This document shows positions 34,103 to 63,864 of a DNA stretch of 64,000 nt, in pieces. The DNA is taken from positions 1,792,001 through 1,856,000 of the forward strand of contig OZ242326.1 in NCBI GenBank assembly GCA_965208325.1. Direction: 5' to 3'. This DNA comes from Candidatus Poribacteria bacterium. GTDB lineage: Bacteria; Poribacteria; WGA-4E; PCPOR2b. The notes beneath the pieces are model-generated. The model made no database searches, was not told the origin of the DNA, and saw nothing but the letters and a program-made list of their open reading frames with translations. Position 1 is the stretch's first letter. Each line of letters begins with the position of its first letter. A program made the position numbers and the translations under genes.

Positions 34103-36970
34103 CTAAAACAACGTCCGAAATAGAAACTTGATGTTACGCCCCGGCTCAGGCATGACCGATTTGATTCTCGAAAGGTGTTGGCGATATTCGGAGTCGAGGA
34201 GGTTTTCGATTGCGAACACCGCTTGATGTTGGAGCCCCCAAATCGAAAATAAATACTGGCAGCCCAAATCATAGGCGATGTATCCGTCGGTAGGCTCCTC
34301 AAATTCGCCTAACCGATGCTGCGAATTCGCGAATCTTGCCGTCAAATGGAGGTTCAACGGCTCAGTCACGTATCGGAGCGCTATTTTCCCGTTGAGGGGC
34401 GGCATCCGTTCAATGGGCAGTTCACTATCTTTTAAAGTCCCTCTGACGTAACTCGTGCGCACTTGCGCGTGCACTCGCGGCACAATCTCGGCGTCAACGG
34501 TCAACTCGGCGCCGTCAAGGACGGCATCCAGTCCGCGGTATTGGTAAATCCACAACCAGCCCGCGGCACCGCTGCCCCATTCCTTTTCACCGGTGTTTGC
34601 CGGAATCAGGTAACCGTAAATCTGGTTGCTGAAAATTGCTAGATTCAGTTTTAGCCGATTCCCCTTATAGCGCAGAAACGCCTCTGTTCCCCAGCCGTTC
34701 TCGGTGCCGAGTTCAGAGTTGCCGATTTCGTAGGAGTAGGCTGCCAGGTGAGGGCCATCCGAGAAAAGTTCCTCAATTCCTGGAGCGCGGAAGGTTTTCA
34801 TCATCGTTGCGCCCGCCTTCAAACCGCCGGTCCAATGGTAGATGCTAGACACGGCGCCTGACACGCCTCCGAAGTTTCGGCGACGGACTATTCCCGCCGC
34901 GGTCACTGTTCCCGTCGTGAATGGTTCAACTCGCTTGAAGTCGTAGCGAACCGCACCTTGCAGCGTGAAATCGCTAACTTTCTTCTGATTGAAGTAGAAG
35001 CCTGCGATAGACATTTCCCGCGCGTGCGGCGTCCAGTAGAATCCGCCGGTTGAATGATCGCGATATTCGCTCCACACTCCGGTTATGGCGTCATCAGACA
35101 GATGAGCCAGCGCGGACACATTGGTGGTCAACGCAATAAATTCGACGCCGAGCGTCTTGTTGGATTCAAACTCTTGATGTTGATATCGCGTGTGAGTTGA
35201 ATGAATTTTCAACTTCTCAAAGAACGAGCCATTGATTGAATACTCAAAGTTACCTTCATACCGTTGTCGATCGAGTTCGATATTGACTCCGGAGATGTGT
35301 CCTTCCGGCGATCCGGGGATACCGTAATCTGATCGGTTTCGCCCACCCGAAATACCAAGGTGCCCCCAATTCTTGACCACGGAAGCGCCGCTTGAAAAAT
35401 TGGTGTTTGATAGTGAGGTGTTCTCCAAGATACCAACGGGAGTGCGCGTATCGTCGGCATAGCGGCGATTCCATGCCAATCGCCACGCAAGGTCCCCGAT
35501 TGGAATCGTCAATCCTGTTGTCGCGGTAATTCCAGAATTGACAGATTCGCCCTGAAACTTGAGGTCTACGGAAGGGTGATGAGGCAAAGTCCGCGGGACG
35601 GTTTCGCGTTTGACATCTACGACGCCGCCGAGCGTGTTTGAACCGTAGATAAGCGATGCGGGTCCGCGGATGACCTTGATATTTTTTGCGGTGCTCGGAT
35701 CTATCACGACCGCATGGTCGGCTGCGGACGCCGATTTATCGCCGGTGCGCTCGCCATCCTCAAGAATGAGCAATCGGTCACCGCCCATACCCCGGATGAC
35801 CGGTCGCGCCACGGCGCGCCCCATCGACCGCTGTGCGACACTCACCTCATCGCGGAGTGCATCGGCGATGGTTATTCCCATCTTCGCATCCAGCTGTTCC
35901 TCTGAGAGTACGAGGCTAGTAGTTATTTCAAGCTGAGCGAGGACATCATCGTCAGGCGTGACCAAAATCTCTTGCAGTTGTACCACGCTGCCGTCCATCG
36001 AAACGGTTAATGCCGGTAGATTCGGTGCGAGTCTCGCGAAAAACCCGTGCCTGCGCCCATCCGCCGAATCATAGTGTCCGACGATAGACCCGTCCTGATT
36101 GATATTCCAGCCCTCCGTGCTAATGCTGTTCGGAACCGTAAATTCCTGCAGTCCGTCGCGGAACGTTCCGACATAGGTACGTGTGACACCATCCGCCGGT
36201 TTGGCCCGGGAAACGACAACCGTTGCATCGTTGATACCGTGCACAAAATAGAATTCCAGTCTTTCGGCATGTGAAATGTCGAGCGATACAAACGTGCCTT
36301 TCGGGGTACGAATGTATGGATGAAACAAGCCATCAGCGTCTACGTAGCTTCCCACCATACCACCGCTCGCGTTCACGAAATCGGCGTATGTTTCTGACGC
36401 CCCGGGGAACTCAATTACTTCGTCTCCCGAGAATCCGCGGCGAATCCCGGAAGCATCTATATAATTACCCGTCAGTGCCCCGGTCGTATCACTAATACCG
36501 TAAATCTCCGTTTGGACCGCACCTGGAAAATCGTATTGCCGCAACACGCCATTTTCCAAGATTACACCGTGGTACAGACCATCGCTATTCTGGTAGTGGC
36601 CTGCAGCTATCCCTGTGTTACCGAGTGCATAAAAATAGGTGTTCAGCGAGTCGGGGAAATCGTGCGTTAAAAATTCACCGTCAATTAGCGTAAAGCCGAT
36701 TATTTTTTCACCATCAGCGCTTTTTGTGTTGCCCGCGAAATCGCCGCGGTCGCTACTCGCAGTCAACTCTAAAAACTCCACACCGGGAACATCAATCGTC
36801 TCGACAGTATAGTTGGTGCCGCCGATTGCAACAACGGGATTATCGCCGTCCTGCGCATCAGTGCTTTTTAAGAAAAATGAATTGAGGTACATTATCAATA
36901 CAAACGTGCAATACCAAGTTGCATTCGGAGGTGTTGTTTTCATCATGCGAAACGTCCTCTTCAGTTTCAT
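34103..36970 (-). CDS. TonB-dependent receptor (ZnuD-like) with an N-terminal extracellular repeat domain
   Basis: Plug ARPVIRGMGGDRLLILEDG...RGPASLIYGS, FRAPGIEELFSDGPH, C-terminal MPEPGRNIKFLFRTLF. N-terminus has about 6 (D/E)FPGA..T...IN..G..G.Y...G..HGF repeats. Confidence 0.93.
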   Translation of the reverse strand: MKLKRTFRMMKTTPPNATWYCTFVLIMYLNSFFLKSTDAQDGDNPVVAIGGTNYTVETIDVPGVEFLELTASSDRGDFAGNTKSADGEKIIGFTLIDGEFLTHDFPDSLNTYFYALGNTGIAAGHYQNSDGLYHGVILENGVLRQYDFPGAVQTEIYGISDTTGALTGNYIDASGIRRGFSGDEVIEFPGASETYADFVNASGGMVGSYVDADGLFHPYIRTPKGTFVSLDISHAERLEFYFVHGINDATVVVSRAKPADGVTRTYVGTFRDGLQEFTVPNSISTEGWNINQDGSIVGHYDSADGRRHGFFARLAPNLPALTVSMDGSVVQLQEILVTPDDDVLAQLEITTSLVLSEEQLDAKMGITIADALRDEVSVAQRSMGRAVARPVIRGMGGDRLLILEDGERTGDKSASAADHAVVIDPSTAKNIKVIRGPASLIYGSNTLGGVVDVKRETVPRTLPHHPSVDLKFQGESVNSGITATTGLTIPIGDLAWRLAWNRRYADDTRTPVGILENTSLSNTNFSSGASVVKNWGHLGISGGRNRSDYGIPGSPEGHISGVNIELDRQRYEGNFEYSINGSFFEKLKIHSTHTRYQHQEFESNKTLGVEFIALTTNVSALAHLSDDAITGVWSEYRDHSTGGFYWTPHAREMSIAGFYFNQKKVSDFTLQGAVRYDFKRVEPFTTGTVTAAGIVRRRNFGGVSGAVSSIYHWTGGLKAGATMMKTFRAPGIEELFSDGPHLAAYSYEIGNSELGTENGWGTEAFLRYKGNRLKLNLAIFSNQIYGYLIPANTGEKEWGSGAAGWLWIYQYRGLDAVLDGAELTVDAEIVPRVHAQVRTSYVRGTLKDSELPIERMPPLNGKIALRYVTEPLNLHLTARFANSQHRLGEFEEPTDGYIAYDLGCQYLFSIWGLQHQAVFAIENLLDSEYRQHLSRIKSVMPEPGRNIKFLFRTLF

Positions 36971-37087
36971 TTTTTTAATTCTCGTTGGTTGCCAGTGAAC
37001 TTATCCCCATTGTTTAGACTGTCATCAACGGAAATTTAGGTGTAATGGCTACCCAATCCGGCTACGCTTCAACACCATCGAAATTAG

Positions 37088-37202
37088 GATTTGCACGAAG
37101 GTTGTGACCGAAATTCGAGAACAGATTTTTATCGGGACTTTTGCTAACGGTAATTACCTTGCAATCGTTAACGATTTGAAAACGAAGTTCAGCGTTTACT
37201 AA
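37088..37202 (+). pseudogene. Relic 3' end of a paralogue of the 33622-34071 lipoprotein gene
   Basis: Translates ICTKVVTEIREQIFIGTFANGNYLAIVNDLKTKFSVY* versus ICTKVVTDVREQIYIGTFAPGDYLVTVNGVKKKFRVD*. Confidence 0.88.
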
Positions 37203-37232
37203 TTTTACACCGTCTCGCTCTATTTGTCCTTC

Positions 37233-39851
37233 CTAAAACAACGTCCGATATAGAATCTTGACGTTACGCCCCGGCTCCGGCATCACCGATTTGATTCTAG
37301 AAAGGTGTTGACGGAATTCAGTATTGAATATATTCTCGACAGTGGCTACAAATTGATGTTGAAGTTGCCACATTGAGAACACTACCTGCAAGCCGGCGTC
37401 GTAGACGAGGTACCCGTCTGTCTTTTCTTCAAATTCGCCTAGCCGCTGCTGGTCGTCCGAATACCGCGCTGTCAAATGCAAATTTAACGGTAGGGTAACG
37501 TAGCGCAATGCCACTCGTCCGTTGAGCGGCGGGATGCGTTCGAGCGGCAACCCGCTTGCCGCCAAAGACCCTTTGACGTAACTCATGTGCGACTCTACAT
37601 GAATTCGCGGGAAAATTTCGGCGTCAATACTGATTTCGGCACCGTCGAGGATAGCGTCTTGCCCCTGGTATTGATATATCCACAGCCACCCTGCTGCGCC
37701 GCTACCCCATTCCTTTTCCCCGGTTTGGGTCGGGCTCAGATAGCCGTAAATCTGGTTGCGAAAAACGGCGAGATTGAACTTCATACGGTTGCCTGAATAG
37801 CGCAGAAATGCTTCCGTACCGAAGCCATCCTCCGAACCGAGTTCAGCGTTGCCGATTTCATATGAAAATACCGCGAGATGCGGACCGTCGGAAAAGAGTT
37901 CTTCAATTCCGGGCGTGCGGAATGTTCTCATGAACGTGGCGCCCAACCCAAGGTTTTCGTTCCATTGATAGATGCTTGAGACTGCGCCTGACGCGCCTCC
38001 GAAGTCGCGCTGCTGTACCTTTCCTGCACGTATTTCGACACCTTCAACAAACGGCTCAACCCTTTTCGCGTCGTAACGAAGCGCTGCCTGTAGTGTGAAG
38101 TGGTTGTATCGCTTCTGTTTGAAGAAGAACCCCGCCAAAGATATCTCCCGGGTGTGAGGTGTCCAGTAAAACCCACCCGTCGCATGGTCGCGATACTCGC
38201 TCCAAATTCCTGCAACTGCATCGCCGCGCAAGTGCAGCAGTGCGGTTGTGTTGTATGTCAATACACCGAACTCCACGCCGAGCGTGTTGTTGGATTCATA
38301 CTCTTGGTGTTGATAGCGCGCGTAGGTCGAGTGCAGCTTAATTTTTTCGAGAAACGATCCCTCAAACGCGTATTCCAGATTGCCCTCATACCGTTGGCGA
38401 TCGAGGTCAATGGTAACACCTTGGATGTGGCCTTCGGGCGAGCCGGGGATTCCATAGTCTGAACGGTAGCGGCCGCCGGAAATCCCGATGTGCCCCCAAT
38501 CCTTTACCACTGAAGCACCGGTTGAAAAATTGGTGTTTGATAACGACGTGTTTTCCAAAGTACCGACAGGTGTTTGAATATCGCCGGCGCGGCGGCGGTT
38601 CAGCTCCAACCGCCACGCGAGGTTACCGACCGGAATCGTTACTCCTGTTGTTCCGGTCAGCCCTGAGTTTACCGATTCACTCTGAAACGTGAAGTTCATC
38701 GTCGGCTGGTTGGGGAGAGTTTGCGGGATGGTCTCGCGCTTGACGTTGACTACGCCGCCGAGTGTGCTTGAACCGTAAAGCAGCGACGCTGGACCACGCG
38801 TGATCTCAATCTTTGCCGCGGTAGTTGGGTCAATCGCAACGGCATGGTCAGCAGAGGATGCCGATTTATCGCCTGAGCGCCCGCCGTCTTCGAGGATGAG
38901 CAGACGGTTACCGCCCATTCCCCGGACAACCGGCCGTGCTGCCGATCGCCCCATCGTGCGCTGGGCGATTCCTAGCTCTCCACTAAGGGTCTCGGCAATA
39001 GTTGCGCCCATTTGTTGATTTAGCTTCTGATCAGAGAGTTTGAAATCGGTTGTTTTCTCAAACCGAGCGAGTTCGTCATCGTCAGCCGTGACAATGATTT
39101 CACCGAGCTGGACCGTGCTAGGTTTTAATTTTACATCCAGCCTTATCGGATCCGCATTGACAGCAATTTTCTGATTTAATGTCTCATAACCAACGCACAT
39201 GAATTGCATTCCATGTGTCCCCAACACAATTTGACCAAACTGAAACAGCCCAGTTTCATCAGTTCGCGATTGGATAGTCTTCCCCGCGGCAACAAGGGTA
39301 ACCTCGACGTCCGAGATTGGATTTTTCGTCTCAGCGTCAATCACTTGTCCTGAAACGGAAACGGTGCGGGGCGCGGACAATCCGTCTACATTATGCGTCA
39401 AGAGAATGGCAAAAAGAGAGAACGTAAAAAGTTTAATTGGAGTTATTTCTTTGACCTTGTTCGACAATTTGCAGAGTTGACACATACGGCAGAGATGGCG
39501 ATTGATGAGGTGAACAACTGCTAGCAGAAGTCCGCCCATAGCTATGAAGATTACTTCGCTCCCCTCTGATGCGTGAAACCGTGCAATGTAGATGAGTGTT
39601 AATGCACCACCGAGCATTAGAAACACTCGCCATTTTCGGTGGTGCCGATAGCCCCACGTGAAACTGCCGACAGCAACTCCCACTGCGCCGACAACCAACG
39701 CCAACTCCGCTGACTCGCTGAGAATAAACCCAAGCCCAACCAGAGGCAATACGGTCATCAAGAGCGGGGCTGCCATACAGTGGACGGCACACGCAAACGA
39801 CAAGCATGCGCCTACATTGTCCACGACTGTGTGATTCAGATATCTGTTCAA
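37233..39851 (-). CDS. MerC domain fused to a carboxypeptidase-regulatory-like domain and a TonB-dependent receptor
   Basis: aa 1-131 are near-identical to the stand-alone MerC at 61993-62391. Then a signal-like segment, VSGQVIDAETKNPI...TDETGLF, a plug, and a barrel paralogous to 34103-36970. Confidence 0.9.
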   Translation of the reverse strand: MNRYLNHTVVDNVGACLSFACAVHCMAAPLLMTVLPLVGLGFILSESAELALVVGAVGVAVGSFTWGYRHHRKWRVFLMLGGALTLIYIARFHASEGSEVIFIAMGGLLLAVVHLINRHLCRMCQLCKLSNKVKEITPIKLFTFSLFAILLTHNVDGLSAPRTVSVSGQVIDAETKNPISDVEVTLVAAGKTIQSRTDETGLFQFGQIVLGTHGMQFMCVGYETLNQKIAVNADPIRLDVKLKPSTVQLGEIIVTADDDELARFEKTTDFKLSDQKLNQQMGATIAETLSGELGIAQRTMGRSAARPVVRGMGGNRLLILEDGGRSGDKSASSADHAVAIDPTTAAKIEITRGPASLLYGSSTLGGVVNVKRETIPQTLPNQPTMNFTFQSESVNSGLTGTTGVTIPVGNLAWRLELNRRRAGDIQTPVGTLENTSLSNTNFSTGASVVKDWGHIGISGGRYRSDYGIPGSPEGHIQGVTIDLDRQRYEGNLEYAFEGSFLEKIKLHSTYARYQHQEYESNNTLGVEFGVLTYNTTALLHLRGDAVAGIWSEYRDHATGGFYWTPHTREISLAGFFFKQKRYNHFTLQAALRYDAKRVEPFVEGVEIRAGKVQQRDFGGASGAVSSIYQWNENLGLGATFMRTFRTPGIEELFSDGPHLAVFSYEIGNAELGSEDGFGTEAFLRYSGNRMKFNLAVFRNQIYGYLSPTQTGEKEWGSGAAGWLWIYQYQGQDAILDGAEISIDAEIFPRIHVESHMSYVKGSLAASGLPLERIPPLNGRVALRYVTLPLNLHLTARYSDDQQRLGEFEEKTDGYLVYDAGLQVVFSMWQLQHQFVATVENIFNTEFRQHLSRIKSVMPEPGRNVKILYRTLF

Positions 39852-39968
39852 TTATTGGCTCCTAACGTCATACGTTACTTTTACCGGTTTCCGCTTTGCC
39901 GGTCCGGCATGCCAAATCCGAATTAATCGCTAGATTTGGCACGCTGACAGGCAAACTTATGTCTTCGG

Positions 39969-40601
39969 TTACGGCGTAACCGTTACGGGAATCAAGAGCG
40001 CCGCCGTGAAATCGGGATGGTCGCCGTGCATGAGTTGGAGCTTGATTTGCGTTTGACCGGCTTTAAGCCCTTTTACCTCAAAGGTGAATTGCTCGGCAAG
40101 CTCATCGCCGTGTTCATCGTGTTCCTCATGCTCATCATGTTCCTCATGCTCATCGTCATCGTCATGCTCATCGTCATCGTCGTGATCATCATGCTCATCG
40201 TGTTCGTCGTGATCGTCGTGGTAAAGGTGTACCTCAATGATTGATGAATCATATCCGCTGAGCGCTAAAGCAAACACCTCTTCCTCGCCATGTTCGTGGT
40301 CGTGGTCGTCTTCCTCTTCCGGATTCTCAGGAAAAAATTCATGGCTGTCGTGGTCAAGGAACGCGGTCAGAACGTCGAGTTCCTCTCCGACTTTGAGCGT
40401 GATACCTCCCGAATGCTCCCCTTCAAATTGACGGTATATCTCGTTCCCGTCAACCTTGAGGACAAAACCGTCTGCATCGGCGTGAAAGGGTTCATCGTCA
40501 TGGCCATTGTCGACAATAGGATTGTCGTCTTCACCGCAAGCAGCGAAAAGTGCAACAGATATGAGTAACAACAACGTAAAACGTAAAACAGGTGTAAACA
40601 T
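39969..40601 (-). CDS. His/Asp/Glu-rich lipoprotein, putative metal scavenger/chaperone, copy 1
   Basis: RBS GGAGG before ATG 40601. Lipobox LFAAC. About 40-aa HDE low-complexity tract. C-terminal LMHGDHPDF. Confidence 0.85.
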   Translation of the reverse strand: MFTPVLRFTLLLLISVALFAACGEDDNPIVDNGHDDEPFHADADGFVLKVDGNEIYRQFEGEHSGGITLKVGEELDVLTAFLDHDSHEFFPENPEEEDDHDHEHGEEEVFALALSGYDSSIIEVHLYHDDHDEHDEHDDHDDDDEHDDDDEHEEHDEHEEHDEHGDELAEQFTFEVKGLKAGQTQIKLQLMHGDHPDFTAALLIPVTVTP

Positions 40602-40760
40602 AATTTCCTCCAGACATAGATAGACTGTATTTCCCAAGCATCACGACTGATGAAACAGTGAAAAATAGGCAGACTACTGCCGAGACTATACACAAGTCAG
40701 CCGGGAAAGACAGATAAAGATTTGGTCAATAAAGACAGCGATATGAGATAAATGAGCAGT

Positions 40761-41066
40761 TTAAACGGGGATAGTCGGCGGGGCGCGACTCCGGACGCAT
40801 TTGTCAAGAATCGTAGAAATGAAAGGTAAGGTGATTGGTCGGCGAATTGAGATGCAGATGTCGAGATTGGTGACATCAACGGGGGTGAGTTCGATACCGA
40901 CGTGGTTGGCATTGAAGAAACAGGCGGAGCAGTGTTCTGAACAGCAATCAACATGCTCATGGTCGTGCGCAAGCGAGATAAGGTTTACCGTTATCAGGTA
41001 ATAGACGATTCCAATCGCTATTGCCCAGGCCACGCTGTTTGGGTGGATTCTAATCTTCTGCAACAC
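40761..41066 (-). CDS. DUF2946/CruR-like leader protein (TM, HDHEH, CxxC, RAPP), copy 1
   Basis: Hydrophobic N-terminus, AHDHEHVDCCSEHCSACFF, C-terminal RSRAPPTIPV. First ORF after the promoter. Conserved in copy 2. Confidence 0.85.
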   Translation of the reverse strand: MLQKIRIHPNSVAWAIAIGIVYYLITVNLISLAHDHEHVDCCSEHCSACFFNANHVGIELTPVDVTNLDICISIRRPITLPFISTILDKCVRSRAPPTIPV

Positions 41067-41112
41067 TCCTCACCTCATTCATACGTACGAAAATTCGCCA
41101 ACACAGGACAGT

Positions 41113-41141
41113 ATATTAGCACAACCGATCGGTTTTGTCCA
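41113..41141 (-). promoter_or_regulatory. Sigma70-type promoter with a palindromic spacer
   Basis: TGGACA-17 nt-TAATAT with extended TGn. Spacer contains AACCGATCGGTT. Conserved in copy 2. Confidence 0.7.
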
Positions 41142-41321
41142 ATTTTTCTGTTTCAAAAAATCGAACCCAGTGGGTATGACCGCCAATTCATCGCACTGAT
41201 TGAGCTAATGATATTGTTGATTCACCCGTCATCGGTAGTAAAGTTTAGATTAAAAGATTTCTATCCAGTCTCTCCTAAAATGCTGTACTATTTCCAATTT
41301 GGATTTGGCTTGCGCGTTGGC

Positions 41322-51102: not shown

Positions 51103-51123
51103 TTATTTGCCTCCTTGGTGCAC

Positions 51124-53151: not shown

Positions 53152-53237
53152 TTTCTTTCTCCTTGTCCTTTTTGGATAAAAAAATCCTTCAATATTGACT
53201 CACAAGATGATCGGCGGCCGGCACAGTCTGTATTCTG

Positions 53238-54518: not shown

Positions 54519-54579
54519 GCGTGATGTTCTCCTCCAAGTGGAATGGACAGATAGACCTATATTTTATTCCGTACGTTTG

Positions 54580-54672
54580 GGGCTGTCAACCGCTGCGGGA
54601 TTCTACTGAACGCCGCTGTTGCGCCTACATACAGAACGACGCACGGTTGAATAAGGCTCATCAAGGCAGCCC
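54580..54672 (-). promoter_or_regulatory. Long imperfect stem-loop between the leader ORF and the czcC-like gene
   Basis: Nested pairings GGGCTG/CAGCCC, TCAACCG/CGGTTGA, TGCG/CGCA and TTCT/AGAA. Confidence 0.55.
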
Positions 54673-54735: not shown

Positions 54736-55167
54736 TCAAATGAGGAGGGTTGAAATACGAAGGGATACTAGTGTTGAATTGATTAACGCCGGTGCGTGGA
54801 AAGACGGCGTGCAGATTGGAATAGTAGGGAAAGGCGGTTGAGATGCCGTTAGACCGACAGCGGAAACCGCGTGGAGAGATTGCATGTCTTTGGCGGGAAT
54901 GACATGTGGGTGTTTGTCTAAGGGGAAAAAGATGGCGAGATCGACACATGAATCACAGTGGTAAGTTTCCGATGCCGCTTCAGCGTGCATAACATCTTCT
55001 TCCGAGTCAAAAGGGTGGTTGTCGGTACACCGCCCGTTAGCACCCACTTCAAGTTCGACGTGATCGTCCGAACCGATACACAGCACATAGTTGGACAGCG
55101 ACACCGGTGTGGCAACGATATAAAGAAGTAACCAAATCAGAGGGATGGGCGTGCCCTTCTTAAACAT
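54736..55167 (-). CDS. Exported Cys/His-rich leader protein upstream of the czcCBA-like operon
   Basis: Signal peptide, VLCIGSDDHVELE, HCDSCVD (CxxC), Pro-rich linker, C-terminal SLRISTLLI. Confidence 0.75.
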   Translation of the reverse strand: MFKKGTPIPLIWLLLYIVATPVSLSNYVLCIGSDDHVELEVGANGRCTDNHPFDSEEDVMHAEAASETYHCDSCVDLAIFFPLDKHPHVIPAKDMQSLHAVSAVGLTASQPPFPTIPICTPSFHAPALINSTLVSLRISTLLI

Positions 55168-55280: not shown

Positions 55281-55308
55281 ATTATAGATCGATGTCGTCA
55301 TTGGTCAA
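55281..55308 (-). promoter_or_regulatory. Sigma70-type promoter of the leader-czcCBA operon
   Basis: TTGACC-16 nt-TATAAT. Confidence 0.7.
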
Positions 55309-55568: not shown

Positions 55569-56876
55569 TTAGCATCTTTGTAAGCGTTCAAAGAGCTTAA
55601 GCTGCCGATCCAAACACTCAGCTTGAGGGAAATATTGTGGTTCGTAATTTCGGGTTTCGTTCCATGTAGCATAAACACAGTATTCAAAAAGCTCTTTTTT
55701 GCTATTGCGTTTCCTAACGACCTTGCTACCAATATTCGTGAATCCAAGAGATCTCAAAGAATCCTCAAGTAGCTTCTCCGTATGAACTTGCACACCGTAG
55801 AAGCTAGAGTTTCCCACAATGTATGCCAAAACTGCGCCTTTCTTCAGGCTTTTTCGCAAATTCTGTAGATGCAGGTGCATGTCATGGAAATATTTCCAAA
55901 CATAATTTGCCATTAGTAAGGCATTCTTTTTTTTCGTTTCCAAAATTTGGCAAACAACAATGTCCAATGATTTCGGGAGTTCACGTTCTTTTGATGTCCA
56001 ATCTTGAAGCCTGCTAGTTGCAACACCCCAGGTTCCGCCAATTGCCTTCCAATCCAATTCACCCGCTTCCCTAGCGGAGTCAAGAAACTTCGTCCAGTAC
56101 ATGTACGGGCGAAGTTCACGAATATAACTTATGCGGTTGGGATATGGCGGAGATGTGATAACGTATGAATATCTCACATTATTGATTGATACTGGCGCCC
56201 GTGAATCCTCAAAATGCACAGACGCAGAACCAGATATTTCATCACCAGCACTTTCGATGATTGATTTTGATATTTTTCCATACAATGCCCCAATTTGCTC
56301 AATTTTATAAGTCACTACTTCATTTTGAAACGACATGGAAACATGGTTGAATGCCGCCGAAGATGTTTCAATTATTAAGCGACAAAATGCAATCCACGCC
56401 AAATTAGCAACATGGTTTTCTTTCGGTTCTCCAAACTGATTAACAAGCGCCTCACGAAATGCAGCAAGCGCTGACAAAGTATGGCCGCACCACCACCGCG
56501 TAATATTATGTATTTCGGGTATCCAGTTGTCTCCGTTCGCAATCTTTTTGCAATCGGCAAGGACTTTAATGTTTTCTAATTTCAGCCATTCCAACTCAGC
56601 ACTTGAGTAGTTCCGGCATTTGGCATTTCCAAACCAAATGAGAAATGGGTTTATATCAAGACAATGTGCAGATAGCCCATGTTCCGCAGCGACCAATCCG
56701 CTTGTAGCTGTCCCAGAAAAAGGATCGAGAATAAACGCATCCTCGGGGACACTATCAATAATCTCCTTTACTAGCTTGACCGAATAAGCGGGCGTCAAAC
56801 GTAGCCACCCATGCCTGCCGAGTTTATTGTTGTATTTGAATGTATAGTCTGACCGTTGCTGAAATCTCTCGTTCAT
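55569..56876 (-). CDS. DNA amino-methyltransferase, probably N4-cytosine
   Basis: ILDPFSGTATS (motif I) precedes VITSPPY (motif IV). HGWLRLTPAYS N-terminus. Confidence 0.92.
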   Translation of the reverse strand: MNERFQQRSDYTFKYNNKLGRHGWLRLTPAYSVKLVKEIIDSVPEDAFILDPFSGTATSGLVAAEHGLSAHCLDINPFLIWFGNAKCRNYSSAELEWLKLENIKVLADCKKIANGDNWIPEIHNITRWWCGHTLSALAAFREALVNQFGEPKENHVANLAWIAFCRLIIETSSAAFNHVSMSFQNEVVTYKIEQIGALYGKISKSIIESAGDEISGSASVHFEDSRAPVSINNVRYSYVITSPPYPNRISYIRELRPYMYWTKFLDSAREAGELDWKAIGGTWGVATSRLQDWTSKERELPKSLDIVVCQILETKKKNALLMANYVWKYFHDMHLHLQNLRKSLKKGAVLAYIVGNSSFYGVQVHTEKLLEDSLRSLGFTNIGSKVVRKRNSKKELFEYCVYATWNETRNYEPQYFPQAECLDRQLKLFERLQRC

Positions 56877-57676
56877 TTCTCAGCATTCCGTAGTGTGTCT
56901 AATACATCATGTATTTCTTTCTTGATTCTCGTTGTGTGATGTTTGAAGAAACCCGCTAAGTCGTACGTTAAAACTTGTTCACAGAATGCATACAAGGATA
57001 CGTTATTGTTTCCGCAAGTCGTACCGATGAGAATCCCGCAACGATTGTTACGGTATCTTAAAACGATATCAGCGTCAATTTGAGAAGAAAAAACTGCAAA
57101 CACAGGTAAGTAATTGTTTGCCCATGCGACTGTAGCGTTGTCAATGTCCGCATTTTGACGTTTAGAATCTTTGCTCTTGTAGCCCTGTCGAACTTCAAAA
57201 ACAATTCCGCTAGTGGGTTCGGAAACTTCACCCAATTCCGAGCAATACCGCTCTGTCCACTGCTTAACGTTGGTCAGTACCCGTTTATTTTGGATCTCTG
57301 AAAGTTCTAATCTGCCATCTAGAGATAACTTCTTCAATTTCCCGGAAGGTGTTTTGGCAGTGTACGACCATGTGGCGAACTCAGCATTTTTGTAACCAGT
57401 CGTATCCACCAGCACTGCGCGAAATAACCGTTCGCAGCCAATCCCAATCTGGCGGTACACAGAAGTCATCCCACCCGCAAGGCGGTGGGCGGCATACATA
57501 AGATCGGTATCAAGGCCGGTCCATGAATAGAAAGGATCTGAACTGTAAAGTGTCTTGAACTCGTTCAGAGAAAATCCTTCTTCTTTGTTCGCATGACCGA
57601 ATTTTGGTCGGTATCGTTTGCACCTCTGAATTGGGTCCAAAAATGTATCAAGGTATCGTCCTTCGTCTCTCGTCAC
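56873..57676 (-). CDS. Putative type II restriction endonuclease
   Basis: Overlaps the MTase start (ATGA). IGIGCE...SLDGRL...VFEVRQGYKSKDSKRQNAD fits a PD-(D/E)xK-like pattern. Confidence 0.7.
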   Translation of the reverse strand: MTRDEGRYLDTFLDPIQRCKRYRPKFGHANKEEGFSLNEFKTLYSSDPFYSWTGLDTDLMYAAHRLAGGMTSVYRQIGIGCERLFRAVLVDTTGYKNAEFATWSYTAKTPSGKLKKLSLDGRLELSEIQNKRVLTNVKQWTERYCSELGEVSEPTSGIVFEVRQGYKSKDSKRQNADIDNATVAWANNYLPVFAVFSSQIDADIVLRYRNNRCGILIGTTCGNNNVSLYAFCEQVLTYDLAGFFKHHTTRIKKEIHDVLDTLRNAEK

Positions 57677-58185: not shown

Positions 58186-58959
58186 TTAGGATTTACGAAG
58201 TTTGAGTGAATCTGCTTTTAAACGATCGAGCTCAAGATGGTAGATGCCGACAAGTATATCGCCCTCAAACTTTTGCCCAACACGAAAGGTGCCGCGAAGC
58301 GAAATTGGCACATCTTGATAACTGCGGATTTTCTTTTTTTGCGGAACCTCTACATACACCCATTCGTTAAGGAGCGGGATTGCGCCGAAACAGCATGCCA
58401 TTTGGTCTTTGAGCAACACGAAAGTTCGAACGTTATCGAATTCACCTTCAAGCGGCAACATGAACCCTTCAATCTCAATTTTCGACCCGTTCAACGCTCT
58501 GATTTGCGGCGGAATTTCTTCGTCTAGGTTCAGCGCGGAGACGTATTCCGGATCGTCCAATCTAGCCCAGTTCGGCTCCCTGATTCGAAAGCTAGTGAGG
58601 GTGTCAAAGGTCAGTGATTCATAATCGCCCGTGCGCTTGCCGCTCCGTTGACTTTCAACTCTTGGCGGCTGGGAGTCCGGCACCGCGCCCGGCTGTAAAT
58701 CCACGCTGATCTCCGGTGTGGTGTTCACCTCCTCGCGCGGATTGGCATCGCCAGATTCTGCGACCGCCAGCGGGGCACCCTGCACCTCAAAACGTCCAGC
58801 GTTCGACGCTGATTGCTCGCTTACCTTCCTAAGGGCGCGAATCGGATGTGGTTCCGGTAACATTTGAGAAAGACCGAGCGCCAGCGCAACAACAACTACA
58901 CTCGTAATTGCAAAAGGAAGCCAAGAGCTTCGTCGTTTCTCCGTTTTAAGCTGCTTCAT
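58186..58959 (-). CDS. DUF3299 domain protein (ZrgD-like)
   Basis: IRALNGSKIEIEGFMLPL, FVLLKDQMACCFG..P..NEWVYV, GIYHL. N-terminal TM. Confidence 0.85.
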   Translation of the reverse strand: MKQLKTEKRRSSWLPFAITSVVVVALALGLSQMLPEPHPIRALRKVSEQSASNAGRFEVQGAPLAVAESGDANPREEVNTTPEISVDLQPGAVPDSQPPRVESQRSGKRTGDYESLTFDTLTSFRIREPNWARLDDPEYVSALNLDEEIPPQIRALNGSKIEIEGFMLPLEGEFDNVRTFVLLKDQMACCFGAIPLLNEWVYVEVPQKKKIRSYQDVPISLRGTFRVGQKFEGDILVGIYHLELDRLKADSLKLRKS

Positions 58960-58975
58960 CGCATTCGCCTCCTAA

Positions 58976-59509
58976 CTAATGGTGATGATGTTCACCGTGC
59001 CCACCCTCGTTGCCTTCGGGAAAATCAAAATCAACGTCAGTGAAGTGCTGCCCCTTCACCGAAATTGACGTGATTTGCGCGTGAAAATCCGTCACGCCCT
59101 TGAGCACGTCGGATTGTCCCTCATATTGAGAGGTATCACCTTCGGTTTCTCCTGTTAAAACGTTTGCAGCGGCTTTGAGTTGCAAAGTAATTGACTGCCC
59201 AGATTTCAACCGATTTAATTTGAGTTCGATGGTGTTCTGCGTGAGGCGCACCGGTTTTTCCGCCTCGCTATCTAGGACATAACCAGTGAGTTTTCCGGTT
59301 GATTCTTCCAGCACAAATTCGAGGTGCGCGAACTCTTTGCCCAACACCACGAGTGCTCCACCGTGCGGCGCCGTATGATGATGGTCGGCGTGTGTTCCAT
59401 GTGTCTCACTCTGATTACCGTGGTGAGCGTCTTTTTTCTCACAACCGAATTGGACAAATGCAATTGTAAAAATTGTCATCAATGTCACGATGGTTTTTTG
59501 GAATTTCAT
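58976..59509 (-). CDS. His-rich lipoprotein, putative metal binding
   Basis: Lipobox QFGC, HADHHHTAPHGGALVVLG..AHLEFV, C-terminal HGEHHH. Confidence 0.85.
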   Translation of the reverse strand: MKFQKTIVTLMTIFTIAFVQFGCEKKDAHHGNQSETHGTHADHHHTAPHGGALVVLGKEFAHLEFVLEESTGKLTGYVLDSEAEKPVRLTQNTIELKLNRLKSGQSITLQLKAAANVLTGETEGDTSQYEGQSDVLKGVTDFHAQITSISVKGQHFTDVDFDFPEGNEGGHGEHHHH

Positions 59510-59632
59510 GATGGTTTTTCCTACTCCAAATTTGAGTTAATGGAAACGTCAAATTCTTCGTTATGATTCAGACGTTCCCACACGTTTATGTGGTATCCTT
59601 AGCATATGGATATGCGTCCAAAGGTGAACTCA

Positions 59633-59767: not shown

Positions 59768-59836
59768 CTACGGCCGGAATCCCCACCGAATGAGACACAA
59801 GACACGTACGATAAGGGTTAGCTAATTGGCGTTATC

Positions 59837-59931
59837 GTCATTTGGGTTCATATTTGCACAAGGAGAGATTGACTGATTGATAATCAAGGCTAGGAAGCCT
59901 CTCCCACAAACCAATGCGTAAATGTATAATT
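59837..59931 (-). repeat. 95-bp dispersed REP-containing element, second copy
   Basis: Aligns without gaps to 15482-15576. Confidence 0.85.
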
Positions 59932-59945
59932 TTTAGTTGCAATGC

Positions 59946-61199
59946 CTATAAGTTTGCCGCAACATCCGTCCGATACGCTTTGACGGCGGGCAAAACGCCC
60001 GCAACTGCCCCTAAGATTATAACACAAACTGGTGCGATGATAAACGCAGGATGAAAACTTAACAGGTCCAATACGATTCCGGTTTGTGCACGAACAATCG
60101 CCGACGCTGCCGTGAAGATTATTCCGTAAACGATGAAACCAATGACGACGCCCATTGCGGCGATAGATGCGGCTTCCAACACGATTACGGAAAAAACCGT
60201 TTTCCGACGCGCACCGAGCGACCGCAAAATGGCGAACTCACGCCGCCGTTCGTTAATCGAATTATACACGCTTGCGAGAATTGAGCCTGCCGCCACCACA
60301 ACGACAAGATAGGAAACCAGCGCCAAAATTTGATTCATCCAACCAATTTTATCAAACAGTCTCGCCATCACCGCGCCTATCGGCCATGCGAGAGTTGCCG
60401 CCTTACCCTGTTTATTTATTGTGGCGTCCATCATGAAGCCAATCTGCGGATTGCGAAACTTCAGCATAACGGCACTGACCTCTTTGTGCTCGTCGGGAAT
60501 CTCTCGTCCTGGTTCAGCCACATAATCCTCCCCACTTCCGCGCAACACATGCCCCTCCATCCGGTAAATCCCTTCAATCGGAATCCAGATGACGCGGTCA
60601 GACGGAGAATTGGTCGGTTTAAGCACACCGACGACGGTATATTGCTCGTCATGCCGCATCGACTCATCAAATACTAATCCGTGATAGGGGTTAAAGTTAT
60701 CGCCTACCTTCAAGCCTAACTTATCCGCGGTGTAGCTGCCCAAAACCGCTTCTTGCCGAGCCGGATTGAAAAAACGTCCGCCGCCTTGAGTTTGAAACCG
60801 AACGCCATCACGGTACTCAAACTCTGTGAATAACGTCCGCGTCGTGCCGACGATGCGGAATCCGTGATAGTTGTCTCCGAGTGCGTAAGGCACGGCGAGT
60901 TCGACGCGAGGGTCGTCTCTCATCGCCTGATACATCGCCCATGGTATATTGCCGGGTGAGGTTTCGAGATGAAAGACAGTGTTCAATACCAGTTGCAGCG
61001 GACTGCCGCGCGCACCGAGAACCGCATCAAAGCCGATCTGACCGCCCGTGAATGCGGCTACAGATTGCGCCTTGATGCCGATGACTGCCATGACGAGTCC
61101 GGTTCCGAGCGCTATCGACAGCGCAGCGATAAGCGTCGATAGGGCGTGTTGCCGCAGGCTGCGTCGAACGATGAATAACAAACTCATGCGCTTTTTCAT
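59946..61199 (-). CDS. ABC permease, MacB/FtsX type (ZrgC-like)
   Basis: VLGARGSPLQLVLNTVFH, AVPYALGDNYHGFRIVGT, ERRREFAILRSLGA. Confidence 0.92.
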   Translation of the reverse strand: MKKRMSLLFIVRRSLRQHALSTLIAALSIALGTGLVMAVIGIKAQSVAAFTGGQIGFDAVLGARGSPLQLVLNTVFHLETSPGNIPWAMYQAMRDDPRVELAVPYALGDNYHGFRIVGTTRTLFTEFEYRDGVRFQTQGGGRFFNPARQEAVLGSYTADKLGLKVGDNFNPYHGLVFDESMRHDEQYTVVGVLKPTNSPSDRVIWIPIEGIYRMEGHVLRGSGEDYVAEPGREIPDEHKEVSAVMLKFRNPQIGFMMDATINKQGKAATLAWPIGAVMARLFDKIGWMNQILALVSYLVVVVAAGSILASVYNSINERRREFAILRSLGARRKTVFSVIVLEAASIAAMGVVIGFIVYGIIFTAASAIVRAQTGIVLDLLSFHPAFIIAPVCVIILGAVAGVLPAVKAYRTDVAANL

Positions 61200-61317
61200 T
61201 TTTCCACGTGAATATTGTGCCGCAGGATTTTCAGTACGGTGTCACATGTTCGTGCTCAATGCGGGATTCGGATATGCACACTCGCCGGCTGATGCGGCGG
61301 GCGCATTTTTTATGCGA

Positions 61318-61980
61318 TCACGCACGATTCACATGTGCGAAATCTGTTGCCTTCTCAAACTGCTCCAATATTCCGACATCGTGGCTAACGGTGAGCAACG
61401 CGGCGTTGTTTTCATGGCAAATCTCGCGGATAAGCGCTATCGCTTCGTTAGCGCGGTGATAATCCAGATTTCCAGTCGGTTCGTCGGCAAGCACCAAGCG
61501 CGGACGGTTGGCGATAGCTCGGGCAACCGCAACACGCTGCTGTTGCCCGACGGATAATTGCGACGGCGGATATCCCATTCGATCGCCCAATCCGACCCGT
61601 TCAAGCAGGTGTTGGGCGAACTCTACATCAACGCCCTTCCCAAACATCATGCCGAGCACGACATTTTCCAATGCGGTGTAACCGTGGAGCAGATTGAAGG
61701 TCTGGAAGATGTAGCCTATATGGCTGGCGCGCAGTGAATCCCGCCCAGACTCGGAGAGGCCAGTCATCTCCTCACCATTAATGACGATCTGTCCGCTATC
61801 GGCGTGCAGAATTCCAGCGACAAGATTAAGAAACGTGGTTTTACCCGTGCCGCTGCTTCCCTTGAGCGCCGTCTGCGAACCTGCCTCCAGCTCGAAATGA
61901 GGCACATCAACGACCCGAGTCTGCGTGCCTTCAGGCGAGCAATAGGCTTTTTCGAGATTAGCGACTGTCAAGAGCGGCAT
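61318..61980 (-). CDS. ABC ATP-binding protein (ZrgB/LolD-like)
   Basis: GSSGTGKT, LSVGQQQRVAVARA, LADEPTGNLD, VSHD. Confidence 0.95.
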   Translation of the reverse strand: MPLLTVANLEKAYCSPEGTQTRVVDVPHFELEAGSQTALKGSSGTGKTTFLNLVAGILHADSGQIVINGEEMTGLSESGRDSLRASHIGYIFQTFNLLHGYTALENVVLGMMFGKGVDVEFAQHLLERVGLGDRMGYPPSQLSVGQQQRVAVARAIANRPRLVLADEPTGNLDYHRANEAIALIREICHENNAALLTVSHDVGILEQFEKATDFAHVNRA

Positions 61981-61992
61981 AACACACCGTGA

Positions 61993-62391
61993 TTAGTTGT
62001 TCGACGTTTCGCAGTGTTGACACATACGGCAGAGGCGGCGATTGATGAGGTGAACAACTGCTAGCAGAAGTCCGCCCATAGCCATGAAGATTACTTCGCT
62101 CCCCTCTGATGCGTGAAACCGTGCAATGTAGATGAGTGTTAATGCACCACCGAGCATCAGAAACACTCGCCATTTTCGGTGGTTTCTATAGCCCCATGTG
62201 AAACTGCCTACAGCAACTCCCACTGCGCCGAATACCAGCGTCAACTCCGCTGACTCGCTGAGAATAAACCCAAGCCCAACCAGCGGCAATACGGTCATCA
62301 AGAGCGGGGCTGCCATACAGTGGACGGCACACGCAAACGACAAGCATGCGCCTACATTGTCCACGACTGTGTGATTCAGATATCTGTTCAA
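61993..62391 (-). CDS. MerC-domain membrane protein, stand-alone copy
   Basis: DNVGACLSFACAVHCMAAPLL (CxxHC), four TM segments, GYRNHR, HLIN..LC. Confidence 0.9.
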   Translation of the reverse strand: MNRYLNHTVVDNVGACLSFACAVHCMAAPLLMTVLPLVGLGFILSESAELTLVFGAVGVAVGSFTWGYRNHRKWRVFLMLGGALTLIYIARFHASEGSEVIFMAMGGLLLAVVHLINRRLCRMCQHCETSNN

Positions 62392-62508
62392 TTATTGGCT
62401 CCTAACGTCATACGTTACTTTTACCGGTTTCCGCTTTGCCGGTCCGGCATGCCAAATCCGAATTAATCGCTAGATTTGGCACGCTGACAGGCAAACTTAT
62501 GTCTTCGG

Positions 62509-63150
62509 TTACGGCGTAACCGTTACGGGAATCAAGAGCGCCGCCGTGAAATCGGGATGGTCGCCGTGCATGAGTTGGAGCTTGATTTGCGTTTGACCGG
62601 CTTTAAGCCCCGCCACCTCAAAGGTGAATTGCTCGGCAAGCTCATCGCCGTGTTCATCGTGTTCCTCATGCTCATCGTCATCGTCGTGATCATCGCCCTC
62701 ATCGTGATCGTCATCATCGTCGTGATCGTCATCGTGTTCATCATGCTCACCGTGATCGTCGTGGTAAAGGTGTACCTCAATGATTGATGAATCATATCCG
62801 CTGAGCGCTAAAGCAAACACCTCTTCCTCGCCATGTTCGTGGTCGTGGTCGTGGTCGTCTTCCTCTTCCGGATTCTCAGGAAAAAATTCATGGCTGTCGT
62901 GGTCAAGGAACGCGGTCAGAACGTCGAGTTCCTCTCCGACTTTGAGCGTGATACCTCCCGTATGCGCCCCCTCAAATTGACGGTATATCTCGTTCCCGTC
63001 AACCTTGAGCACAAAACCGTCTGCATCGGCGTGAAATGGTTCATCGTCATGGCCATTGTCGACAATAGGATTGTCGTCTTCACCGCACGCGGCGAACAGT
63101 GCAACAGATACAAGTAACAACAACGTAAAACGTAAAACAGGCCTAAACAT
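62509..63150 (-). CDS. His/Asp/Glu-rich lipoprotein, copy 2
   Basis: Near-identical to 39969-40601 apart from the His tracts. RBS GGAGG before ATG 63150. Confidence 0.85.
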   Translation of the reverse strand: MFRPVLRFTLLLLVSVALFAACGEDDNPIVDNGHDDEPFHADADGFVLKVDGNEIYRQFEGAHTGGITLKVGEELDVLTAFLDHDSHEFFPENPEEEDDHDHDHEHGEEEVFALALSGYDSSIIEVHLYHDDHGEHDEHDDDHDDDDDHDEGDDHDDDDEHEEHDEHGDELAEQFTFEVAGLKAGQTQIKLQLMHGDHPDFTAALLIPVTVTP

Positions 63151-63308
63151 TATTTCCTCCAGATATAGATAGACTGTATTTCCCAAGCATCAAGACTGAC
63201 GAAACAACGTAAAACAAGCAGACTACTGCCGAGACTGTATAAAACTCAGCCGGGAAAGACAGATAAAGATTTGGTCAAAAAAACAGAGATATGAGATTAT
63301 TGAGCAAC

Positions 63309-63611
63309 TTAAACGGGGATAGTCGGCGGGGCACGACTCCGGACGCCCTTGTCAAGAATCGCAGAAATGAAAGATACGGTGATAGGTTGTTGAATTGAGA
63401 TGCAGGCAGCAAGATTGGTGACGTCAACGGCGTTGAGTTCAATACCGACGTGGTTGGCATTGAAAAAGCAGGCAGAGCAGTGTTCTGAATTGACATCAAC
63501 ATGCTCATGGTCGTGTACAAGTGCAACAAGGTTAACCGTTATCAGATAATAAACGATTCCAATCAATACCCCCCAGCGAATGGGAGTAAAATGGATTTTA
63601 ACCTTTTGCAA
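63309..63611 (-). CDS. DUF2946/CruR-like leader protein, copy 2
   Basis: TTG start after AAGGAG. VHDHEHVDVNSEHCSACFF...VRSRAPPTIPV. Confidence 0.85.
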   Translation of the reverse strand: MQKVKIHFTPIRWGVLIGIVYYLITVNLVALVHDHEHVDVNSEHCSACFFNANHVGIELNAVDVTNLAACISIQQPITVSFISAILDKGVRSRAPPTIPV

Positions 63612-63660
63612 GACTCCTTACCTCATTCAAACGTTCAAAAATTCGCCAACACAGCATTGT

Positions 63661-63689
63661 ATTTTAGCACAACCAATTGGCTTTGTCCA
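63661..63689 (-). promoter_or_regulatory. Sigma70-type promoter with a palindromic spacer, copy 2
   Basis: TGGACA-17 nt-TAAAAT. Spacer contains CCAATTGG. Confidence 0.7.
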
Positions 63690-63864
63690 ATTTTTTTGAT
63701 TCAAAATCGACAGGAATGGGTATCAAACCAAATCCATCGTACTGCCGCTAGGCACCTTGACAAAACTGGTAATAATCGTTTATTCTAAACTACAGCGAGG
63801 CCTTGGAATGTAATGGACCGAAACTGATTTCATTCATGATGACAAGAAAGGACTGTAATCCAGA

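Follow-up and report, generated by a model that had tools for sequence, protein, structure and literature searches.

A duplicated leader-peptide cassette with RAPP motifs stands before two predicted zinc-starvation transport modules in a Candidatus Poribacteria genome

Metal-sensing arrest leaders have been demonstrated for copper only in the literature surveyed. CruR (Bp2923) of Bordetella pertussis, a DUF2946/PF11162 protein, is the first gene of its operon, has a signal-like N-terminus, a CxxC motif and a C-terminal RAPP, and is followed by a 162-nt spacer and the TonB receptor gene bfrG (PMC9426467); its arrest has been shown experimentally (PMC12992588). CutF-like proteins are likewise small exported leaders with Cys/His sites that precede metal genes, their commonest neighbours being RND outer-membrane genes and TonB receptors, and CutF itself is copper-induced and unmasks a Shine-Dalgarno sequence (SD), as described in bioRxiv 2022.11.11.516240 and 2025.02.05.636593. 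For zinc, Neisseria ZnuD (PMC4557270; PDB 4rdr) has a plug and barrel with the high-affinity ligands D99/H100/E340/H499, and the Zur-regulated operons zrgABCDE of Vibrio and PA4063-PA4066 of Pseudomonas encode a His-rich periplasmic protein, a DUF3299 protein and a split MacB-type ATPase/permease (PMC9817125, PMC11481552). In the open literature, subscription papers aside, neither a RAPP leader that senses zinc nor a fusion of MerC with a receptor was found, nor any account of the poribacterial cluster described below, and the supplementary gene lists of PMC12992588 and of the CutF preprints may include these leaders.

The DNA analysed, a stretch of 64,000 nucleotides called here the window, comes from a sponge-symbiont bacterium, and the relatives compared with it are Ca. 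Poribacteria. All genes, promoters and spacers given below lie on the minus strand. Comparison of the window with itself by blastn yields a repeat pair (39457-41198 and 61997-63744) with 90.6% identity over 1751 columns, which confirms an earlier note's report of a block at 39457-41146 repeated at 61997-63694 and extends it by about 50 bp at the promoter end. Each cassette of about 1.7 kb contains, in order, a promoter, a RAPP leader, a His/Asp-rich lipoprotein and merC, and the 4.7-Mb genome holds these two copies and no others. Between copies W1 and W2, identity is 80.2% in the promoter, 81.7% in the leader, 87.3% in the leader-lipoprotein spacer, 94.5% in the lipoprotein, 95.4% in merC and 100% (117/117) in the lipoprotein-merC spacer, bearing out the description of nearly identical lipoprotein and merC genes behind a more diverged leader and promoter. 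The longest identical tract (326 bp, 39745-40070 = 62285-62610, unstranded) is read as a gene-conversion tract. An assembly artefact, raised earlier as a possible source of the duplication, was rejected on the evidence of contigs bridging the junctions of both copies in independent runs: the copy-1 junction is spanned by independent contigs in 4/4 runs and the copy-2 junction in 3/4, among those listed. Samples X5 and X6 belong to other studies, and X1 may be the source sample. The identical tract is assembled as a single collapsed contig at about twice the flank depth (41 vs ~20 in X1, 44 vs ~25 in X5). Unrelated genes (DUF4159, a 1449-aa propeller protein and a methyltransferase pair) take up about 8 kb of the 22.5 kb between the copies. 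The reuse of one leader cassette before different transport modules, proposed for this genome, recurs repeatedly in the relatives.

The copy-1 leader (100 aa, 40761-41063) has an N-terminal hydrophobic stretch followed by HDHEH, CC at 40-41, CxxC at 45-48 and RAPP at 93-96; the copy-2 leader (63309-63611) has VN in place of CC. Among 33 aligned leaders, H35, C45, C48, R93, P95 and P96 are invariant and the CxxC-RAPP spacing is near-fixed. The leader is present in 40/61 genomes, with dN/dS of 0.14-0.44. Putative sigma70-type promoters, recognised as sequence motifs, precede both copies (TGGACA-17-TG-n-TAATAT at 41113-41141 in copy 1; 63661-63689 in copy 2), and the -35 and extended -10 are found again upstream of the leaders in most relatives. 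Downstream of the copy-1 leader lies a 159-nt spacer (40602-40760) with a pyrimidine-rich 5' part, a conserved long stem and a strong SD; the excess of C over G past the leader stop, 8 and 6 in the two copies, is unremarkable for this genome, a value of 8 being reached by 10.7% of genes, and Rho is encoded in the genome. Riboswitch control was considered and rejected, the Rfam scan of the window having returned RNase P alone. The window leaders resemble CruR in operon position, signal-like N-terminus, both motifs, downstream TonB receptor and spacer length. They differ from it in the His patch ahead of CxxC, the zinc-type cargo, the lipoprotein as next gene, the presence of two differently equipped copies per genome and a weak similarity to DUF2946, which 11/33 aligned leaders match weakly (best E 3e-4, 16-20 bits) and the window leaders do not match at the PF11162 gathering cut-off of 23.7.

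By analogy with CruR, we consider it likely that the duplicated cassette activates a ZnuD-type receptor and a Zrg-type MacB ABC system, both of them zinc-starvation modules, through a leader predicted to stall at RAPP under zinc scarcity. A strong sigma70 promoter would fire at each cassette; without metal, the ribosome would stall at RAPP, the pyrimidine-rich spacer would be shielded from Rho and the operon would be transcribed, and binding of zinc to the His patch and CxxC would free the stall and shut the operon, as has been shown for copper and CruR. A translational leader of the CutF/SecM kind, in which the stalled ribosome opens a structure hiding the ribosome-binding site of the lipoprotein, possibly with the opposite sign (metal induces), appears improbable to us. 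It would fit the signal-like leader N-terminus, which CutF requires, and the SD, which is predicted to be mostly paired (mean 0.90), and with a block at the RAPP footprint the opening energy drops by over 0.5 kcal/mol in 12/26 leaders vs 4/26 in the control, strongly in G005, G006 and G019. However, results among relatives are mixed and neither window copy gains from the block (4.8 to 4.8; 7.4 to 6.4, control 5.8), so that the unmasking known from CutF is not predicted here. The consensus fold energy of the spacer is also near zero, its length (130-164 nt) conflicts with the short spacers that ribosome-driven unfolding is thought to require, and a zinc-uptake cargo speaks for metal-off logic and against a metal-induced leader.

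The assignment of the cargo to zinc begins with the receptors. ZnuD is the top NCBIfam and PDB match of the receptor (E 5e-56; 4rdr, E 5e-32), and its four zinc ligands are all kept, as D335/H336/E517/H658, in a mapping obtained by counting along the HMMER alignment with an offset of 14 at all four sites; the three motifs that hold them are present in 29/30, 29/30 and 30/30 of the relatives' receptors. The plug and barrel homology with Neisseria ZnuD is accompanied by clear differences, namely the absence of the His-rich loop 3, an N-terminal CarbopepD_reg_2 or repeat domain, the MerC fusion and the lack of a Zur box here, and the window receptors score far under the ZnuD cut-off (191 and 185 bits vs 950, NCBIfam NF038289). 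The second receptor (34103-36970), the one with the repeat domain, seems to be a recent horizontal import: it is 81-86% identical in nucleotides to receptors of genus g11, nests in the g11 clade (100/99) and is missing from the same place in G001-G003. Behind copy 2 follow a permease with MacB_PCD and FtsX domains and a LolD-like ATPase (59946-61980), then a DUF3299 protein and a second His-rich lipoprotein (58186-59509). Judged by these domains, the ABC system is of MacB/LolCDE type and no classical importer, and a LolD-like ATPase, a MacB_PCD/FtsX permease and DUF3299 stand together in one operon as in zrg and PA4063-66, with a His-rich protein as a further shared feature. Unlike those operons, this one has other lipoproteins, neither of which has any Pfam hit, that of ZrgA (DUF2796) included, contains merC, carries a RAPP leader at its head and has no Zur box in this genome.

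Receptors that keep the ZnuD ligands and an ABC system like Zrg/PA4064-66 mark the cargo, on sequence grounds, as being of the zinc-starvation type. Neighbouring genes in relatives point the same way: one leader (L111) heads, in a by-eye reading, a lipoprotein, a receptor, merC, a ZnuA-like protein and a CobW-like GTPase, the leader is followed by ZnuA in G004, and lipoprotein-receptor-merC is followed by a CobW GTPase in G054. We regard as unlikely the alternative that the leader senses Cu, Ni or Co or that the cluster serves divalent metals in general without zinc specificity, even though the family members characterised so far are copper sensors, His-rich CutF-like clusters stand before Ni/Co transporters, PA4064-65 has been linked to cobalt-pyochelin export, and MerC and the RND pump give no pointer to zinc. 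It is opposed by the four conserved ligands, by the scores of OprC and TIGR01778, which lie far below that of ZnuD on the receptors, by the ZnuA and CobW-like neighbours and by the recruitment of a Zur promoter to the cassette in relatives.

This recruitment also bears on the question of a conventional regulator. No regulator family was found among the 25 ORFs scanned, as the earlier note had it for the region, but Zur, a second Fur-family gene and one ArsR-type HTH are encoded elsewhere in the genome. MerR_1 was not found in the genome (95.6% complete) and no mer genes were found among the ORFs scanned, leaving merC without a mer operon context. A Zur matrix gives 2.1, -1.7 and -4.4 bits at the three window promoters, whereas the zur locus itself scores 32.8 and the 95th percentile of the background is 4.0; the best match to the Fur consensus at these promoters has 6-8 mismatches of 19. 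A palindrome between the -35 and -10, tried as an operator, was dropped since it is not kept in relatives. These results make it very doubtful that the leader is secondary to a transcription factor acting as the main switch, whether Zur bound to a degenerate site, the other Fur-family protein, an ArsR protein or a two-component system. In favour of such a switch, besides the Zur and Fur-family genes themselves, at 7/11 loci of the related genus g11 the zur-znuA promoter is found copied (78-83%, 320-376 columns) to a place some 190 bp ahead of the ABC-side leader, and weak Zur-box scores occur in G041, G054, G038 and G004. In some relatives the same cassette therefore appears to be under Zur control, and the placement of the Zur promoter there provides independent grounds for zinc. 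The conventional Zur regulon that had been named as a competing explanation finds no box at either cassette of this genome, which nevertheless encodes Zur.

In FbcH of Bradyrhizobium japonicum, the cytochrome b/c1 polyprotein, a polytopic inner-membrane protein is joined through an internal signal sequence to a second protein. A similar layout is encoded here. The gene content given previously holds with one exception: merC of copy 1 has no stop and, instead of being a gene by itself, reads through a signal peptide into the receptor, forming one 872-aa ORF (37233-39851) of MerC, retained signal peptide, CarbopepD_reg_2, plug and ZnuD-like TonB barrel. The copy-2 merC (61993-62391) stands alone, with 132 aa and its own stop. 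Both MerC parts match PF03203 (74.5 and 82.3 bits, cut-off 27.6) and show four hydrophobic segments by hydropathy. The signal-peptide-like segment at the junction (residues 132-157, 39381-39458) matches the native signal peptide of the unfused receptors in G001 and G006, the linker has 6 K/R, the positive-inside pattern agrees with the proposed reading, and no internal start with an SD is conserved in G000, G002 and G005. An even number of helices ahead of the retained signal in a single ORF corresponds to the FbcH layout, and an AlphaFold model, poor as a whole (mean pLDDT 45.5), agrees on five N-terminal helices. The product is predicted to be cut into MerC and receptor. The receptor would be translated from the merC start, MerC would insert with both ends inside, the former signal peptide would serve as fifth helix, and signal peptidase would release the receptor for outer-membrane assembly. 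FbcH differs in that the second product here would be a beta-barrel of the outer membrane, released by a cleavage that is so far a prediction.

The identical fusion type occurs in G002, G005 and 16 full-length database sequences; among the 176 genomes surveyed, it was found in 3/101 of those bearing merC. According to the receptor tree, whose supported branches force this conclusion, MerC-receptor fusion arose at least twice. Three in-frame deletion variants (P0108, P0110, P0120) retain the merC start and signal peptide, and elsewhere the same receptor start is joined to an ATPase fragment or a lipoprotein. With its two origins and natural deletion variants, the fusion offers a clean case for asking whether a polytopic protein of the inner membrane can carry an outer-membrane barrel as its tail. 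It is conceivable, though we lean against it, that a recombination-prone repeat gave rise to both the fusion and the leader differences as accidents that are tolerated, with MerC providing just a start codon, the gradient reflecting just the reach of conversion tracts and the leaders being equal; this would be compatible with leader control. At least five different upstream pieces have been joined to the start of this receptor family, some variants have lost most of MerC, and it is at its 5' edge that the repeat diverges. Some fused MerC parts are altered at invariant sites; the counts (4 changes among 5 fused sequences, against 8 in a leave-one-out set of 20, excluding the frameshifted G001 and the deleted G003 merC) give no clear sign for or against relaxed selection. 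On the other side, fused MerC has dN/dS of 0.14-0.23 against stand-alone copies, similar to stand-alone pairs (0.20-0.32), and the fused copy is the only merC found in G005.

Informative sites group by locus rather than by genome above 41016, at the 5' end (28:0), and by genome in the spacer and merC (39969-39460; 0:25), which supports the gene conversion of the cargo suggested in the earlier note; an older leader pair with later copying and conversion of lipoprotein-merC would account for much of the identity gradient. A leader-lipoprotein-receptor operon may have acquired a second leader for the ABC module, and in this genus lipoprotein-merC would then have been copied before the receptor, fused in frame and kept similar by gene conversion. 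Two observations on the leaders speak against mere accident. Within the mosaic stretch, CC vs VN stays locus-specific in two genomes. In two-leader genomes, an extra Cys is present in 24/24 receptor-side leaders vs 3/24 on the ABC side. The pattern, first noticed post hoc in a discovery set (14/14 vs 1/14), was predicted beforehand for a hold-out set and repeated there (10/10 vs 2/10); it covers four genera, with the residue at differing positions. Several single-leader receptor operons (G006, G014, G019) are missing it, and overall leader similarity across genera is 0.652 for the same and 0.654 for different back ends. The other earlier suggestion, tuning of the sensors, is supported by this locus-specific difference. 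The extra Cys would shift the set point of the receptor-side leader, most likely through tighter binding, so that production of the receptor would await deeper starvation. Within a single cell the two leaders share CxxC and RAPP and differ in one ligand, a difference that goes with the downstream module in four genera. They thus form a natural matched pair on which the selectivity of arrest peptides and the tuning of their set points can be tested directly. As a tentative and rather speculative extension, a portable ribosome-stalling zinc sensor might replace Zur in Poribacteria for part of the zinc-starvation response, one copy per transport module, with an extra receptor-side Cys that arose separately in four genera shifting the threshold to give a graded response from paralogous arrest peptides, and with two lineages having gained, by the same copying, a working polyprotein, a single translation of which yields MerC for the inner membrane and a zinc receptor for the outer.

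Between the cassettes lie czcCBA-type heavy-metal RND efflux genes (47962-54518; TIGR00914, 902 bits vs cut-off 701, and Pfam), with OEP, MFP and RND components all present. The CzcA TM4 motif may be HME5-like, and no subclass is claimed. Their leader (54736-55167) is of a different type, with CxxC and the ending LRISTLLI (LRxxxLLI), no RAPP and its own promoter (55281-55308); it matched no Pfam or NCBIfam family and has atlas look-alikes in Planctomycetota and in DUF8199. CzcI of Cupriavidus, a CutF-like protein, similarly has no proline motif (bioRxiv 2022.11.11.516240, 2025.02.05.636593). Because this leader is unrelated to the RAPP leaders and has its own promoter, the complete co-regulated metal import and export system envisaged earlier is not supported; CzcCBA moreover sits elsewhere in many relatives, and the ABC system is not an importer of the classical kind. 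A methyltransferase and an unassigned 267-aa gene with 43% GC (55569-57676), inserted nearby and outside the metal system, are missing from the same place in G033, G042 and G045. The His/Asp-rich lipoproteins lie at 39969-40601 (copy 1, with 575 homologues) and 62509-63150 (copy 2), and a lipoprotein-receptor complex prediction scored 0.00, no call either way. For the copy-1 protein, an Ig-like beta-sandwich with two low-confidence His/acidic loops is predicted, whose best match is an S-layer Ig domain (Z 9.6, rmsd 2.6, 87 aligned).

The promoter, leader, lipoprotein and merC cassette occurs twice in the window, and self-comparison gives direct copies at 39457-41198 (copy 1, on the side of the ZnuD-like TonB receptors) and 61997-63744 (copy 2, on the side of a MacB-type ABC module) with 90.6% identity. 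Each copy runs in the order promoter, 100-aa leader, 159-nt spacer, His/Asp-rich lipoprotein, 117-nt spacer and merC, and no third copy was found in the single-contig, 95.6% complete genome. Short-read contigs, from runs that are sponge and reef metagenomes where a habitat is stated, span the copy-1 junction in four of four runs and the copy-2 junction in three of four, and a 326-bp identical tract merges into one contig at about twofold depth (two runs). With both junctions bridged, the duplicated sensing front end claimed in the earlier note is borne out: the duplicated metal-leader cassette is real and well supported, and it is most likely zinc-responsive.

Identity between the copies is about 80% in promoter and leader, 94.5% in the lipoprotein, 100% in the second spacer and 95.4% in merC. 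The relative G002 carries the same two copies, which allows a comparison of four sequences. Counts of informative sites that unite sequences by locus, by genome or crosswise are 28:0:0 above position 41016, 5:8:7 over the remaining leader, 5:11:6 over the first spacer with the lipoprotein, and 0:25:5 over the second spacer with merC. The duplication is therefore older than the divergence of the two species, and its 3' part was later homogenised within each genome; gene conversion, one of two explanations already proposed for the gradient, is thereby demonstrated. The other, a locus-specific difference between the sensors, is supported as well. Relatives generally have the layout leader-lipoprotein-merC-ABC-DUF3299 followed by leader-receptor, with leaders grouping by genus and not by back end. 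In both G002 and the window's genome, CC in copy 1 versus VN in copy 2 is locus-specific, though within the converted stretch. An additional cysteine, placed between His patch and CxxC, occurs in 14/14 receptor-side versus 1/14 ABC-side leaders of a discovery set and, as predicted beforehand, in 10/10 versus 2/10 leaders of ten further genomes (the receptor-side leader of G039 being assigned by position). The comparison excludes three relatives that have several leaders without an ABC back end (G003, G006, G021); all genomes in it belong to four genera only, as kin and not independent cases, and the hold-out set to two of them. The asymmetry between the two putative sensors is reproducible, and several single-leader receptor operons are without the extra cysteine.

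The RAPP leader is present in 40 of 61 genomes, ends in RSRAPPTIPV in both window copies, and keeps H35, C45, C48, R93, P95 and P96 invariant across 33 aligned sequences. It resembles CruR, in which CxxC and RAPP are described as controlling Rho termination within a 162-nt spacer (PMC9426467), and the CruR family DUF2946 is matched, weakly, by 11 of the 33. RAPP uORFs ahead of TonB receptors have already been reported as widespread. Rho is encoded in the genome and the base bias of the leader-lipoprotein spacer is not exceptional; a CruR mode of action is favoured for the window leaders. Unmasking of the Shine-Dalgarno (SD) sequence by a stalled ribosome was also modelled and failed on both copies. 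In the spacer at 40602-40760 and its counterparts in relatives, a long-range stem of the TTTCCC..GGGAAA type is predicted with a probability of at least 0.69 in 19/26, its partner letters varying. Just outside the window (contig positions 1855865-1856551), a 228-aa exported protein with an aromatic C-terminal residue lies divergent from the ABC-side leader and is kept there in many relatives; its homologue in G036 has no Pfam match.

The genome does encode a Zur-like protein, at 2.53 Mb. Its gene points away from a ZnuA-like gene and CobW-like GTPases (neighbours judged by eye), and a perfect inverted repeat there agrees with published Zur boxes. A matrix derived from 19 zur loci (23 sites) gives this site 32.8 bits, against 2.1 and -1.7 bits for the cassette promoters and -4.4 bits for the czc promoter; no Zur box was found at either cassette. 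In genus g11 a Zur box lies upstream of 7/11 ABC-side leaders and, at three aligned loci, belongs to a duplicated stretch of zur-znuA intergenic DNA, which ties the cassette to zinc and indicates that control by Zur can be combined with control by the leader. In G036, G051 and G053 (L085:2390-2680, L090 and L091), this zur-znuA promoter copy of about 300 bp precedes the leader's own promoter, an instance of promoter capture.

Copy-1 merC, previously read as a separate gene before the receptors, lacks a stop codon, and a single frame of 872 aa (37233-39851) encodes MerC, CarbopepD_reg_2, plug and barrel. MerC is followed by a segment that corresponds to the signal peptide native to unfused relatives, minus its start codon. 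The merC start is preceded by a 5-base SD in all three of G000 (the window's genome), G002 and G005, and no conserved in-frame start with an SD was found near the junction in these three. The MerC part has four hydrophobic segments; its loops at 66-76 and 116-140 are basic, and the alternate ones are uncharged or acidic. This fits a MerC with both ends inside and an outward-directed signal helix after it, and signal peptidase would cut the fused product at the retained signal peptide. FbcH is reportedly a precedent for such a cleaved polyprotein. Two database searches, both word-seeded so that distant cases can escape, returned this architecture in no more than five clusters, one of them partial, comprising 16 full-length fused sequences (one probably the window's own) and three more members that have lost most of MerC in frame; across the phylum, MerC was matched in 101 of 176 genomes and lies inside a frame >800 aa in 3. 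Supported branches in a tree of 38 receptor barrels force two origins, so that this fusion of inner- and outer-membrane genes appears to have evolved twice. The same receptor start is also fused, in frame, with an ATPase fragment in G003, with the lipoprotein N-terminal half, its lipobox Cys changed to Tyr, in G021 (L081:6786-9260), and with the first lipoprotein codons in genera g5 and g11; use of a start taken over from an upstream piece is thus a recurrent feature of this receptor.

For both receptors ZnuD is the best match, at a score far under the family cut-off; they retain all four ligands described for its zinc site (PMC4557270) but lack its His-rich loop. The second (34103-36970) is 81-86% identical in DNA to g11 receptors and is missing at this place from the three congeners, and is, judging from these comparisons, a recent import. 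Its N-terminal 280 aa form a fused repeat domain without Pfam or NCBIfam match. There are about ten more copies of this possibly zinc-linked domain in the genome, including one within the zur-znuA-CobW operon; in relatives, further copies border the cluster. The ABC module, a LolD-like ATPase and MacB_PCD/FtsX permease with DUF3299, is laid out like the zrg and PA4063-66 operons, which Zur regulates; PA4063-66 is reported to be a MacB-type exporter (PMC9817125, PMC11481552). The lipoprotein is modelled as a sandwich of Ig-like type that bears His/acidic loops (pLDDT 74.8; Z 9.6, rmsd 2.6, 87 aligned) and may capture zinc.

The idea of one co-regulated import-export system including czcCBA, which exceeds the TIGR00914 cut-off, is not supported. 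Part of the group does have the two linked, with czc directly after DUF3299 in G033, G042 and G045 and elsewhere in other relatives, but the czc leader is a separate type (CxxC and LRxxxLLI end; 29/61 genomes, frameshifted in G002) with its own 11/12 promoter. CzcI-type leaders without a proline motif have been described (bioRxiv 2022.11.11.516240, 2025.02.05.636593). The window's czc leader (54736-55167) belongs to a family marked by CxGxDGHxE and CxxC, with LRxxxLLI conserved at the C-terminus as a candidate non-RAPP arrest or termination motif, and has look-alikes in Planctomycetota and DUF8199. A second 11/12 sigma70-like promoter at 54561-54589 (minus strand), between this leader and czcC, could bypass the leader, and was not found in the spacers of 11 relatives.

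The individual parts belong to known kinds, and literature searches returned no report of their combination, the zinc wiring or the MerC-receptor fusion. In several genomes, methyltransferase or restriction-type genes lie inside the metal cluster or immediately after it (window 55569-57676, L069, L068), which suggests an insertion hot spot. Elsewhere in the window, self-comparison identified a tandem array of an approximately 82-bp repeat (734-1222) and a 532-bp direct repeat (9091-9622 and 10935-11466, 97.9%), and Rfam a class A RNase P RNA (24314-24686, minus strand).
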